From Gammaproteobacteria bacterium (GTDB lineage: Bacteria; Pseudomonadota; Gammaproteobacteria; JBCCGL01): 64,000 nt of DNA. A program made the position numbers and the translations under genes. The notes beneath the pieces were generated by a model. It searched no databases, had not been told where the DNA came from, and was given only the letters and a program-made list of their open reading frames with translations. Shown in pieces: positions 48,755 to 53,784 of this stretch (positions within the stretch are counted from its first letter, which is position 1; every line of letters starts with the position of its first letter). Location: NCBI GenBank assembly GCA_965277715.1, contig OZ255836.1:3648001-3712000 (forward strand), read 5' to 3'.

Positions 48755-49672
48755 ATGACCGAATTCAATTTACATGCCCGTGGCGAAAAGGGTAACACCC
48801 CAACATTGAGTGAGTGGGGCGCCGACAGTGATTACGGTGTATTGCGCGATATTTTACTGGGGCCAGTGGCGCATTATCAGTGGCTGAAAACCAGTTCGGT
48901 GTCGAAAAAGAGCATTCGTCGTGGCTATCAGTTTGACAGTGACGTGGCCTGCGCCCAGCATGCCGAGATGGTGGATGCCTACCGGTCGGCGGGGGTCAAT
49001 GTGCATTTTCTCGAAGCCGATCCGCAGTTGCCGTATCAGGTGTTTGCGCGGGATTCCTCGGTAATGACACCCTATGGTGCGTTTATTACCAACATGTCGC
49101 AGTGGTGGCGGCGAGGGGAAAATTTCCGCGCTATTGAGACGTACCAGAAATTAGGCATCCCCGTTTACGATTATGTGACCGCAGGTTGCTTTGAAGGGGG
49201 AGACTTCGACATTATCGAGCCGGGCTGTGTACTAATTGGTTGGGAAGGGGAAGAGGGGCGCTCGCAGGAATCAGCCGCGCTGCAAATCAAATCCTGGTTT
49301 GACCAGGAGGGTTGGGAGGTCAAGTTGATTGATATTGACCCCTTCTACGTGCATATCGATTTAATGGTAGTGATGGTTGCCCCCAAACTGGCAGCGGTTT
49401 GTCTGGAGTGCACCGACCCGGATGTGGTTCGTTGGTTGCGGGATAAAAATATCGAGATTATCCCCGTGCCGTTTCAGGATACGCTGGCCCTGGGGTGCAA
49501 TGTTGTCGCGCTGGGGAATGACCGTGTGTTATTACCGGCCAAAAGCCAGTATTTGAAAGAGCAACTGCGCGCACGCGGTTTTGAAATCTACGACCCGGAT
49601 GTCGAGATGATTACCTTTGGTGGCGGTGGTGTGCACTGTATGTGCCAGCCTTTGCGCCGGGACCCAGGGTAG
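48755..49672 (+). CDS. Amidinotransferase / dimethylarginine dimethylaminohydrolase (pentein) family protein
   Basis: VFARDS, FEGGD, YVHID, GGGVHC catalytic motifs. Confidence 0.87.
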   Translation: MTEFNLHARGEKGNTPTLSEWGADSDYGVLRDILLGPVAHYQWLKTSSVSKKSIRRGYQFDSDVACAQHAEMVDAYRSAGVNVHFLEADPQLPYQVFARDSSVMTPYGAFITNMSQWWRRGENFRAIETYQKLGIPVYDYVTAGCFEGGDFDIIEPGCVLIGWEGEEGRSQESAALQIKSWFDQEGWEVKLIDIDPFYVHIDLMVVMVAPKLAAVCLECTDPDVVRWLRDKNIEIIPVPFQDTLALGCNVVALGNDRVLLPAKSQYLKEQLRARGFEIYDPDVEMITFGGGGVHCMCQPLRRDPG

Positions 49673-49841: not shown

Positions 49842-51125
49842 ATGCGTGCCGCCACTGAAGTAACCAATAACGACGTATACCATTACATGCAGAGGCTTGG
49901 CGCACGCGCACGCGTGGCCAGCCGTGCTATCGCCAGTGCCAGCACGGCAGATAAGAACGCTGCGTTATTGGCCATCGCCGAGGCTATCGAAAGTAACCGC
50001 GCAGTATTGCGCCGAGAAAATGCGCGTGATCTCGACACCGGGCGCCGCAATCAACTTGCGGCTGCGTTGCTGGATCGTCTGGAGCTGAACGATGCGCGCA
50101 TTGCGGGCATGGCCAATGGGTTGCGCCAGATTGCCCAGTTGCCTGATCCGGTGGGCCAAATCAGTGATATGAGCTACCGACCCTCGGGGTTGCAGGTGGG
50201 GCGTATGCGCGTACCGCTGGGCGTGATTGGTATTATTTATGAATCGCGGCCCAATGTTACCGCCGATGCGGCGGCGCTGTGTTTGAAATCGGGTAATGCG
50301 ACGATTCTGCGAGGGGGGTCTGAGGCCATTCACTCCAACCGCGCTATTGCCGCCTGTATTGGCGAGGGTTTGCAAAATGCCGGTTTGCCTGCCGACAGTG
50401 TGCAGGTGGTGGAAACCACCGAGCGCGCCGCAGTTGGTGAGTTGATTTCGATGAACGATTACATCGATATTATTATCCCGCGTGGCGGTAAAGGTTTGAT
50501 CGCACGGATTAGCCGCGAGGCCACCGTACCGGTGATCAAACACCTCGATGGTATCTGCCATGTTTATATCGATGCATATGCCGACCCGGAAAAAGCCGTG
50601 GCCGTCGCCGTTAACAGCAAAACCTATCGTTACGGCATTTGTGGTGCGATGGAGACGTTGCTGATCGATGGGGCCGTGGTCGAACAGGTATTGCCCGCCA
50701 TCGCCGAACAATTGCACGCGCTGGGTGTCGAGCTGCGAGGGTGTCAGCGCTGCTGTGCACTTATCGACGGTATGGTAAAGGCCGATGCGCAGGACTGGTG
50801 CACCGAGTACCTTGCACCCGTACTCTCGGTGCGGGTGGTCGACGGTATTGAGGCGGCGATGCAGCATATCGCGCAGTATGGCTCTGGACACACCGATGCC
50901 ATTATTACGGACAACCTCAACCAGGCGCAGCGGTTTATGCGGGAGGTGGATTCCAGTTCAGTGATGGTCAATGCCGCCACTTGCTTTGCCGATGGCTTCG
51001 AGTATGGTCTCGGTGCAGAAATAGGCATCAGTACCGATAAACTGCATGTGCGCGGCCCGGTAGGTGTCGAGGGTTTAACGACACAAAAATATATTGTGAT
51101 TGGCCAGGGCACGGTTCGCCGTTAA
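49842..51125 (+). CDS. proA: Gamma-glutamyl phosphate reductase
   Basis: [38 protein letters not shown]. Confidence 0.97.
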
Positions 51126-51198
51126 ACTAGGAATCCGACAGGCTCCTGGCAAGCAGTCAGTCGTTAATCTATTTACCTTACAGTTCAGGAGAGCTTTT

Positions 51199-51417
51199 AT
51201 GAGTACACAACAAAAACGCACCGCGCAGCAACGGCGGGAAGTATTGAACAGCCCCCTGTTGCGCAAGTCTGGTGTCCATCAAAAATCCCGAAAGGTAGTG
51301 CGCCGGGACGATAAAATGGCATTGCGACGTCAGTACTGCCCGCAAAGCACATGGCAGTGTGCTTTGCGGGCAGTATTGGTTTTGTTGGTGGTTACCGCGA
51401 GCCAAGCCCGCTTTTAA
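51199..51417 (+). CDS. Small basic protein (72 aa), candidate ArfA-like ribosome rescue factor
   Basis: RBS AGGAG before ATG 51199; MSTQQKRTAQQRREVLNSPLLRKSGVHQKSRKVVRRDDKMALRRQ... with hydrophobic tail; function inferred only. Confidence 0.6.
   Translation: MSTQQKRTAQQRREVLNSPLLRKSGVHQKSRKVVRRDDKMALRRQYCPQSTWQCALRAVLVLLVVTASQARF
51331..51386 (+). terminator. 21-bp hairpin inside the small basic ORF (terminator or RNase III-type site)
   Basis: cagtactgcccgcaaagcaca-tggcag-tgtgctttgcgggcagtattg followed by gttttgtt. Confidence 0.7.
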
Positions 51418-51418
51418 T

Positions 51419-52072
51419 ATGCCACTGCAACGTATTGGTGTGCTGGGGGGCACGTTCGATCCGGTGCATTTTGGCCATTTGCGTTTTGCGGTCGAGTTTC
51501 GCGATAGGCTTTTTGCCGATGGAGGCGACAGTTGTATCCACTTAATTCCCTGCCATATTCCACCGCACCGCGATCAACCTATCGCAACCGCACAGCAACG
51601 CCTGGAAATGTTGCGGCAGGCGATTGGTGGGCGGCCCGGTTTTCGTGTTGATTCACGCGAGCTGGATTCACAGCGACCCTCTTTCTCAATCGACACGCTG
51701 TTGTCATTGCGCAATGAATTTCCCGCTGCGCAGCTAATATTGGCGATTGGTATGGATGCGTTTGCCGGTTTTCGCCGCTGGCACCGCTGGCAGGATATTT
51801 TGCAGGTGGCCTGTTTGTTGGTGAGTACCCGGCCCGGCGTGCATGGGACGCTGGAGAATAGTGTGATCCGGGAGAATGAATGGGCGCGGCAGCGCCTGGT
51901 CGCACCAGAGCAACTGCACAAAGCGGGGCAGATTGCTGTACTGGAGATGACACCGCTGGCCATTTCATCGAGCGCAATCCGGTCTGTTATTGCAGCGAAC
52001 GGCTCGGTGGATTTTTTATTGCCGGCGTGTGTCGCCGCGTATATCACTGCACATAACCTTTATCGGTGTTGA
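51419..52072 (+). CDS. nadD: Nicotinate-nucleotide adenylyltransferase
   Basis: GGTFDPVHFGH, PPHR, IGMDAF, ISSSAIR; start reassigned to ATG 51419. Confidence 0.95.
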   Translation: MPLQRIGVLGGTFDPVHFGHLRFAVEFRDRLFADGGDSCIHLIPCHIPPHRDQPIATAQQRLEMLRQAIGGRPGFRVDSRELDSQRPSFSIDTLLSLRNEFPAAQLILAIGMDAFAGFRRWHRWQDILQVACLLVSTRPGVHGTLENSVIRENEWARQRLVAPEQLHKAGQIAVLEMTPLAISSSAIRSVIAANGSVDFLLPACVAAYITAHNLYRC

Positions 52073-52492: not shown

Positions 52493-52638
52493 ATGGAGGA
52501 TGCCTTAAAACCACTGCGCCCGGTGATGCGGCGTTGGGAATCGACAAAAAATGCGTATTTACTCCGTGTAAGCGGCGTTTTTTTGTCAATTTCCACCTCG
52601 CCTCACCTTCGCTCGTGACGTTTTAAGACACCCGCCAT
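52493..52638. repeat. Long palindromic (MITE-like) element between rsfS and rlmH
   Basis: atggaggatgccttaaaaccac versus gtgacgttttaagacacccgccat; inner dyad gacaaaaaatgcg / cgttttttgtc. Confidence 0.6.
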
Positions 52639-53131
52639 GCGTGTGCACCTGCTGGCAGTCGGCCAAAAGATGCCCCGTTGGGTCAGTGATGGCTACCTCG
52701 GGTACGCCCGTCGGCTGCGCGGTGAGTTACAACTTGAGCTTAAAGAAATTGCACCGGGAAAGCGTACCCGTACTACCAGCGGTAACATGGTGTCACGCCT
52801 CGTTGAACAAGAGGGTGAGCGGCTGCTCAATGCGATTCCACGCCGTGCGCAGGTGATCGCGCTCGATGTCACGGGGCGCCACTGGTCTACCGAACAGTTG
52901 TCGCTGGAGGTGGCGCGCTGGTTGTCGAGTGGCAATGATACTGCGCTACTTGTCGGCGGGGCGGATGGCCTGTCACCCGCCTGCCTGGCACGGGCAGATG
53001 CCCGTTGGTCCTTGTCGGCGATGACATTTCCCCACCCGCTGGTGCGTGTGATTGTGGCTGAGCAACTCTACCGTGCGGTCAGTTTGTTGCACAACCATCC
53101 TTATCACAGGGCGGGTCACCGGGTGGATTGA
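52637..53131 (+). CDS. rlmH: 23S rRNA pseudouridine-1915 N3-methyltransferase
   Basis: LAVGQKMPRWV, VGGADG, LSAMTFPHPLVRV, HPYHR. Confidence 0.96.
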   Translation: MRVHLLAVGQKMPRWVSDGYLGYARRLRGELQLELKEIAPGKRTRTTSGNMVSRLVEQEGERLLNAIPRRAQVIALDVTGRHWSTEQLSLEVARWLSSGNDTALLVGGADGLSPACLARADARWSLSAMTFPHPLVRVIVAEQLYRAVSLLHNHPYHRAGHRVD

Positions 53132-53784
53132 TGGCACTGGTATTGGCTTCAGCGTCACCCCGACGACAGGCATTGTTGTCACAGCTTGGACTTAGCCATC
53201 GCGTATTGCCGGTCAATATTGACGAAACGGTCAACGACGGCGAAACCGCCGAGGTGTATACGCAGCGCCTGGCGCGTGAAAAGGCCCAGGCTGGTTTATC
53301 CCAGTTTAATTTATCCCGGGTTGATTTATCCCAGGTTGATTTATCCCGGGTTGATTTATCCCGGGCAGTTTCAGACAAGAACGATAATTGCGTGGTTATC
53401 GGTGCCGATACGGTGGTTTGCCTCGATGGTAATATTCTGGGTAAACCGGTGGATAAGGCGCACGCGTTAGCTATGCTGGGCGCACTTTCGGCCCGTAGAC
53501 ACTGTGTTATCACCGCGTTTACGGTCATTTCTGCGGTGCGTGAAATCAGCGGCTGTTGCAGTACAGATGTCTGGTTGGCAAATATAAGCCCTGCGCAACG
53601 CGAAGCGTATTGGTACAGTGGTGAACCTTGTGATAAAGCGGGTGCCTATGCGATACAGGGGCTTGGTGGCGTATTTGTCGAGCGTATTCAAGGTAGCTAT
53701 TCAAATGTCGTGGGCTTACCACTCCACGCGCTATCGACGGCATTGCAGGCTTTTGGGGTTGATGCACTGCGATCGAAACAATAA
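53131..53784 (+). CDS. maf: Maf family nucleotide pyrophosphatase (YhdE-like)
   Basis: LASASPRR, IGADTVV, GEPCDKAGAYAIQG, YSNVVGLP. Confidence 0.95.
   Translation: MALVLASASPRRQALLSQLGLSHRVLPVNIDETVNDGETAEVYTQRLAREKAQAGLSQFNLSRVDLSQVDLSRVDLSRAVSDKNDNCVVIGADTVVCLDGNILGKPVDKAHALAMLGALSARRHCVITAFTVISAVREISGCCSTDVWLANISPAQREAYWYSGEPCDKAGAYAIQGLGGVFVERIQGSYSNVVGLPLHALSTALQAFGVDALRSKQ
53296..53365 (+). repeat. 15-bp tandem repeat (about 4.7 copies) in frame within maf
   Basis: ttatccc(a/g)ggttgat units encoding LSQFN LSRVD LSQVD LSRVD LSR. Confidence 0.9.

Follow-up and report, generated by a model that had tools for sequence, protein, structure and literature searches.

The small ORF between proA and nadD

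The window analyzed here is a 64-kb stretch of gammaproteobacterial DNA (contig OZ255836.1, positions 3,648,001 to 3,712,000), and our subject is a small open reading frame (ORF) in it that a first-pass annotation had marked as a candidate ribosome-rescue factor resembling ArfA. The small ORF (P0001) lies on the forward strand at 51199 to 51417, stop codon included, and has 72 codons between the ATG at 51199 and the TAA at 51415-51417. It sits in a 293-nt gap on the 3' side of proA, which ends at 51125, and is followed by nadD, rsfS and rlmH; this is the order that the annotation had given. The names of the neighboring genes were taken from their translations and from a tblastn match to the corresponding locus (L087) of the nearest relative genome, G266. 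The neighbor nadD (51419 to 52072, forward strand) starts 1 nt past the small-ORF stop and is not counted as part of the system. When a hidden Markov model (HMM) of the protein family described below was run on all six frames of the window, the small ORF was the sole copy.

The features that had drawn attention to the small ORF, all on the forward strand, were recovered. A Shine-Dalgarno-like AGGAGAG (51187 to 51193), read from the sequence, stands 5 nt upstream of the ATG and agrees with the good ribosome-binding site reported earlier. The first 45 residues had been described as basic, and a count on the translation gave 14 Lys or Arg residues versus 3 Asp or Glu. The conserved basic core, codons 12-46 (RREVLNSPLLRKSGVHQKSRKVVRRDDKMALRRQY; 51232 to 51336), was delimited by the family alignments A1 and A3 and is predicted to be the active part of the protein. 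Codons 44-61 (51330 to 51379) form a hairpin within the reading frame, and an interrupted T-rich run, TATTGGTTTTGTTGG (51374 to 51388), lies at and after its 3' arm, as seen in the sequence and in a terminator consensus scan. The remaining codons, 47-72 (51337 to 51414), encode a tail that was not conserved in the family comparison and is predicted to fall outside the active product. The hydrophobic stretch LRAVLVLLVV, which had also been noticed, corresponds to residues 56-65. The small ORF contains no KGKGS motif.

The hairpin was found by an inverted-repeat scan and by RNAfold. The scan returned arms at 51331-51351 and 51358-51378, which are those of the 21-bp stem in the first-pass annotation, and RNAfold lengthened the stem to 23 pairs around a 4-nt loop (51330-51379). 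The centroid energy was -41.7 kcal/mol, with z values of -5.7 to -6.0, and none of 200 shuffles folded as well. This was the strongest near-perfect hairpin among the 23 inverted repeats in the window, and the stem sequence did not recur as a repeated element. The T-rich run after the stem was likewise present: a loose consensus scan scored the site as terminator-like, yet the run is interrupted and nadD begins 40 nt 3' of the stem. No Rfam family reached its gathering score in the window, and over the stem there were only sub-threshold matches, of microRNA-type hairpins.

Near-identical copies of the locus in sponge-metagenome contigs showed four differences within 51000-51600. One was in proA (51032), one was a synonymous change in codon 2 of the small ORF (51204), and the other two, 51376 T>C and 51379 G>A, were at the base of the stem, where both convert a G.U wobble into a Watson-Crick pair. 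Strain variation at the locus included synonymous and conservative changes. Near-identical DNA of the segment 49800-53200 was seen in sponge metagenome contigs from three further studies, at 0.75-0.89 of the sampled words. One run per sponge study was examined; all three consisted of contigs and covered 51000-51600 with 3-4 differences each, and no run recorded as RNA was found to contain the locus. The bacterium is probably a gammaproteobacterium that lives in association with sponges, apparently uncultured and from an order with few sampled genomes.

An unnamed family conserved in its basic core

A phmmer search of the window protein against 1.84 billion cluster representatives (E ≤ 0.001) returned 14 proteins, namely the query, 10 small homologues and 3 long proteins. 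The small homologues were 48-75 aa long and matched over residues ~6-60, with a best E value of 2e-11. The three long proteins (P0003, P0004 and P0006) were repetitive and matched the low-complexity tail only, and they were dropped. Out of 5659 candidates, a profile of the 11 remaining sequences recovered 1299 proteins (E ≤ 0.01). The lengths in the family ranged from 47 to 128 aa. Among the 120 profile matches listed, none carried a Pfam domain and the sole name was "hypothetical protein"; these listed matches came mostly from Candidatus Thiodiazotropha and from unclassified Gammaproteobacteria.

Conservation in the family was confined to the segment from R12 to W46, with the pattern R..L..PLLRKGGVHEKS.KA.RR..K..LRK.W. 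In the alignments A1 and A3, R12, P19, K23, H27, K32 and R35 were invariant and K29, K39 and W46 were nearly so; the window protein has Tyr where the family has W46. Beyond W46 the tails were unrelated in sequence and varied in length, and the stop codon fell 22-103 codons after the conserved His. Judged by this conservation across many proteins, the small ORF is a real gene, and the family to which it belongs has no name.

Searches in other collections gave no name for this family. A word-indexed protein search with the small-ORF protein returned the self-match only, and NCBIfam gave no family for the window protein or for family members. A profile search of the PDB found a chance integrin peptide only (E 0.42). 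The window protein was absent from the ESM Atlas, in which a homologue (P0082) led to clusters of "hypothetical protein" and to a weak lead to DUF7230 (score 0.83, 10% of members). DUF7230 was not returned by scans of the window protein and 11 members (E ≤ 10) or of 10 distant members (E ≤ 1). A full-text search, confined to main texts in the literature collection consulted, found no description of the family. A metagenome scan with the window's own subgroup (alignment A4) gave 143 pattern matches, of which none was confirmed.

The hairpin lies inside the ORF across the family

To place the hairpin relative to the protein, we collected 87 loci, of which 30 came from genomes of the class, 56 from metagenome contigs and one was the window. 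Nine were dropped: four lacked the anchor motif (L164, L149, L150 and L171), one ran off the contig end (L131), and four were identical duplicates. This left 78 loci. The hairpin finder takes the best stem in each 240-nt stretch, and a hairpin qualified if its folding free energy was ≤ -10 kcal/mol and if it started within 46 codons of the invariant His27.

A qualifying hairpin was present in 68 of the 78 loci. Its start lay at a median of 18.7 codons past His27, which is the W46 codon. The earlier expectation that homologues would conserve the N-terminal ~45 residues together with the hairpin position was thus borne out, as all conserved columns fell within R12-W46. In 57 of the 68 loci the in-frame stop lay beyond the hairpin; in 9 it was inside and in 2 before. 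The case that the annotation had named as evidence against its proposal, homologues that stop ahead of the hairpin, was therefore confined to these two. The coding frame was open from the core end through the hairpin in 57 of the 68 loci, versus 27 and 33 for the other two frames.

Some of these hairpins resembled intrinsic terminators. In 22 of the 57 loci, the stem was followed directly by four or more consecutive T, and the in-frame stem and T-runs account for the recurrent peptides "...SFF", "...HFF" and "...DFF". Clear terminators with T5-T7 were seen in several other members (for example L146, L156, L168, L169, L170, L094 and L096). A stricter terminator detector, which is crude and overlooks terminators in which an upstream A-run pairs with the T-run, placed 16 terminators inside the ORF and 3 within 160 nt past the stop for 74 family genes. 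The proportions were reversed in the controls, 169 long ORFs from these loci, with 6 inside the last 150 nt and 13 past the stop. As a positive control, the hairpin detector put a hairpin in the ORF in 4 of 5 arfA genes recognized by the Pfam profile PF03889; in the fifth (L117) the stop comes early and a hairpin is absent.

Two subgroups showed how the structure was retained. The window belongs to the long-stem subgroup, in which 16 of 18 members folded with z values of -4.0 to -10.2, and none of 200 shuffles was as stable; the two weaker folds were those of L088 (z -1.8) and L129 (z -2.5). The long stems were unrelated in sequence, and all of them started at the W codon. Stems in the window's subgroup were 17-25 bp long and mostly had no clean T-run, and L087 had none at all. 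In the short-stem subgroup (25 sequences), RNAalifold found compensatory changes at 5 of 6 pairs. When a specified 10-pair helix was scored, 84.4% of cells could pair, versus 33-59% with the partners slid, and the covariation score was 0.414 versus 0.201 after shuffling, a value reached by none of 500 shuffles; kinship inflates these figures, and the slid-partner controls retain that kinship. These results indicate that the hairpin structure, not the stem sequence, is under selection. The counts over the loci likewise indicate that the in-ORF hairpin is a property of the family and not a peculiarity of the window locus.

Relation to ArfA, BrfA and ArfT

The comparison with known rescue factors suggests that the family most likely works like ArfA and BrfA while being a member of neither. 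According to the review PMC8012679, E. coli arfA encodes 72 residues and carries a stem-loop that leads to premature termination or RNase III cleavage. The product is made from the resulting non-stop mRNA and is cleared by trans-translation, and the hydrophobic 17-18 residues at its end are poorly conserved and can be dispensed with (same review). ArfA (YhdL, PF03889) is found in beta- and gammaproteobacteria. Like it, the family consists of small basic proteins, and E. coli arfA and the window ORF both have 72 codons. The order of parts is also shared with ArfA and BrfA as PMC8012679 portrays them, with a hydrophobic motif, then a basic stretch and then a tail, which is hydrophobic in the window ORF. 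The regulatory design of ArfA and BrfA was found in the family as a hairpin or terminator within the ORF, ahead of the stop and at a fixed place past the core. Their general build was found as a basic N-terminal part of ~50 residues, conserved up to W46, with a variable tail behind it.

The sequences themselves differ from ArfA. KGKGSY was invariant in 8 ArfA sequences and absent from all the family members listed, which have the core RN.LH.HPLLRKGGVHEKS.KAKRR..K..LRK.W instead. PF03889 matched neither the window protein nor 11 members (E ≤ 10), nor 10 distant members (E ≤ 1); the same profile recovered 5 arfA genes in 399 genomes as well as that of E. coli in the control set. Neither ArfA nor BrfA chains were among the PDB matches of the family profile (E ≤ 10). 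Alignment of the family (A3) with ArfA (A2) by hhalign gave a probability of 0.73% (E 0.078), and 0.37% (E 0.16) for trimmed cores; the ArfA side held 8 sequences, 5 of them diverse, and a weak link could escape it. An ArfA HMM run with --max scored the real and the shuffled cores about alike, at best E values of 0.095 and 0.21, respectively. The reservation in the first-pass annotation, that the window protein is not a recognizable ArfA, thus proved sound on motif, on Pfam match and on profile similarity.

A true but very diverged ArfA orthologue, in which RKGG.H.KS.KAKRR would have replaced KGKGSY with function and descent unchanged, is the likeliest of the alternatives to the explanation we prefer. 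There is a local look-alike, which we take as a lead only, between LLH[ND]HPL[LM]RK of the family and LLHDKLFRQ or VAQPLFRSR of ArfA, with a basic stretch after both. The two families share the order of these parts and have a similar spacing to the hairpin, and hhalign aligned them exactly there; they also have their regulatory design and their host class, Gammaproteobacteria, in common. Nevertheless, the hhalign probabilities and HMM scores given above, the missing KGKGSY block and the lack of any PF03889 match all speak against common descent, and we regard orthology as unlikely. A family distinct from ArfA that shares its design agrees better with these results.

The second comparison was with BrfA (YqkK) of Bacillus subtilis. 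PMC8012679 describes brfA as an ORF of 72 codons with a rho-independent terminator ahead of the stop, and its product as regulated by trans-translation and acting with RF2. Many family members resemble it in having a hairpin and T-run inside the ORF. They differ in that BrfA has a Gram-positive host and no sequence match to the family. Moreover, the 23-bp stem of the window, with its broken T-run, is closer to an RNase III substrate than to a terminator of the BrfA type.

ArfT of Francisella is proof that rescue factors unrelated to ArfA exist. PMC6299226 gives it a KKGGSTNKK motif and reports no terminator or RNase III site ahead of the arfT stop, which makes it unlike arfA in its control; ArfT belongs to a broad KGG-type family, as stated in PMC6514570. 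It is a small basic gammaproteobacterial factor, and KKGGSTNKK, as quoted from the former source, resembles RKGG.H.KS.K of the family. The Pfam profile KGG (PF10685, E ≤ 10) had no match at the family loci of five genomes (G266, G154, G350, G103 and G136) or in 11 members. ArfT is set apart from the family by its description and by this profile, and not by direct alignment.

Distribution, rescue inventory and gene context

The family profile matched in 34 of 399 genomes of the class and in 4 of 401 genomes from the phylum, all of these counts being samples in which many genomes are incomplete. PF03889 was found in 5 of the 399 class genomes. No genome had both, and the overlap expected from 34 and 5 of 399 is only ~0.4.

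G266 is the sole genome of its order in our collection. It carries a transfer-messenger RNA (tmRNA) at 200 bits and two genes with an RF-1 domain, which read as RF1 and RF2, and it gave no PF03889 or ArfB match. G154 had the same inventory. Of the five family-positive genomes examined, the other three (G350, G103 and G136) have in addition a third, ArfB-like RF-1-domain ORF. Two further observations were made in G266. A second, weak match to the family (L192, C13:41866-41961; …VLQSPLLKKSHAHQSGRDYDR…; E 3e-5) may be a diverged paralogue, since its tail is acidic or helical and no hairpin was evident within its ORF. The RF2 gene (L185, on C3) has a short ATG-started frame upstream of 895 followed by the main frame, and appears to have the usual programmed +1 frameshift.

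Among the 86 other family loci, the order proA, small ORF, nadD, rsfS and rlmH was common to the window and L087 only, and the ProA of the G266 locus was 74% identical to that of the window. The other loci had different gene contexts. When the window protein was compared by tblastn with 80 nadD loci of other genomes, no match was found near nadD. In the window, nadD has no obvious Shine-Dalgarno sequence, and the small-ORF TAA is 1 nt from the nadD ATG (51415-51421); in L087, nadD starts with a GTG 10 nt past the small-ORF stop. This hints at a possible coupling of nadD translation to the rare occasions on which the small ORF is translated in full.

Proposed function and alternatives

On balance we think that the family probably consists of release-factor-dependent ribosome-rescue factors that are made from non-stop mRNA and curbed by trans-translation. 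This reading is drawn from sequence comparison. A broader proposal, to which we give slightly less than even credence, is that the family spread in environmental and symbiotic Gammaproteobacteria that are poor in recognizable ArfA and converged there on the same trick of a stop-less mRNA. Its RKGG.H.KS.KAKRR motif and its release-factor preference could then differ from those of ArfA.

The mechanism we propose would begin with truncation of the mRNA. In the window's subgroup, we favor cutting within the long in-ORF hairpin, of the RNase III type, with some termination at the broken T-run. We favor an endonucleolytic cut because the stems of 17-25 bp mostly have no clean T-run and because nadD lies directly downstream. 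In other subgroups, transcription would end at the in-ORF intrinsic terminator. Either route would leave a stop-less mRNA ending around codons 47-65. Ribosomes would stall at its 3' end, and as long as trans-translation operates, tmRNA would tag the product of ~47-65 aa for degradation. If tmRNA-SmpB were saturated or lost, the truncated basic protein of ~50 aa would escape tagging and accumulate. Its K/R-rich C-terminal half (H.KS.KAKRR..K) would enter the stalled ribosome's unoccupied mRNA channel, and the N-terminal hydrophobic motif (LLH.HPLL) would recruit a class-I release factor, freeing the peptide. By analogy with the known factors, then, we infer that the mRNA is truncated, that tmRNA controls the product, and that this product binds ribosomes and recruits a release factor.

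Several results weigh against the rescue function. None of the proven rescue factors showed significant sequence similarity to the family. Because the loci share ancestry and the finder keeps the best stem of each stretch, the hairpin counts are not independent events. The clean design was departed from in 21 of the 78 loci, comprising the 9 with the stop inside the hairpin, the 2 with the stop before it and the 10 without a qualifying hairpin; the short forms with the stop inside (e.g. L122, L124, L125 and L128) might be made constitutively, like ArfT. Certain distant members have acidic tails, unlike ArfA, and may do something else. At the window locus itself, the T-tract is broken and nadD begins 40 nt after the stem; therefore, some read-through must occur. 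As for distribution, the 5 ArfA-positive genomes among 399 were too few for a test of complementary occurrence, and 3 of 5 family-positive genomes (G350, G103 and G136) have a third RF-1-domain ORF of the size of ArfB.

The same observations could fit a small basic protein that binds RNA or the ribosome in another role, such as hibernation, assembly or stress. The hairpin would then overlap the 3' end of the gene because the gene is tiny, and non-stop translation would be a side effect or would not occur. Such a role would agree with the lack of homology to any rescue factor found, with the acidic tails, with the loci that depart from the clean design, and with the position of the window gene next to the ribosome-related rsfS and rlmH. 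However, that position recurred in just 1 of the 86 other loci. Moreover, 57 of 68 loci have their stop past the hairpin, whereas ordinary genes show the opposite arrangement, with 6 terminators inside versus 13 after in the controls. Although the tail is unconserved as a protein, the other frames are interrupted before the end of the hairpin much more often than its own. We consider such a role quite unlikely.

A leader peptide or attenuator of nadD-rsfS-rlmH, in which ribosomes translating the small ORF would influence the hairpin and, through it, read-through into nadD, is very improbable. The close spacing of the small-ORF stop and the nadD start, the lack of an obvious Shine-Dalgarno sequence at nadD, the similar layout of L087 and the hairpin 40 nt upstream of nadD would suit such a role. 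However, the family genes elsewhere stand in other contexts, which argues against it: nadD was missing from the context at 85 of the 86 other loci, and family members in other contexts kept the hairpin. Leader peptides conserve only a few regulatory codons and not a 35-residue basic core, and here the peptide was conserved over more than 1000 proteins. A chance ORF across the proA terminator, to which the 293-nt gap past proA and the terminator-like hairpin in it might point, has a negligible probability and is ruled out by the family evidence, with homologues at E values down to 2e-11 for the single sequence and 1299 by profile, the good ribosome-binding site, and synonymous or conservative strain variation.

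If the rescue function that we propose is correct, the family would account for some of the back-up rescue that seems to be missing from many uncultured and symbiotic lineages. To our knowledge, all studied Proteobacteria require trans-translation or an Arf protein. ArfA is described as the least conserved rescue route, confined to Gammaproteobacteria, some Betaproteobacteria and a few Bacillus (PMC11633108). The family would also be a third independent case of control through non-stop mRNA, and scans of small ORFs for conserved in-ORF terminators would be a workable route to such factors. It would also have a bearing on the breadth of action to be expected of trans-translation inhibitors.

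Other observations in the window

Three further features of the window were noted. An ORF similar to Maf (53128 to 53784, forward strand) contains a run of pentapeptide repeats (…LSRVDLSQVDLSRVDLSRA…) at about 53300-53400, which look like a short tandem repeat inserted in a conserved enzyme. The gap between rsfS and rlmH contains an inverted repeat (52535 to 52595), whose arms, TGGGAATCGACAAAAAA and TTTTTTGTCAATTTCCA, are 88% complementary and separated by 27 nt. Between argG and proA lies an ORF of 305 aa (48755 to 49672, forward strand) with the C-terminal sequence …GGGVHCMCQPL, which we take to resemble amidinotransferase or DDAH-type enzymes.

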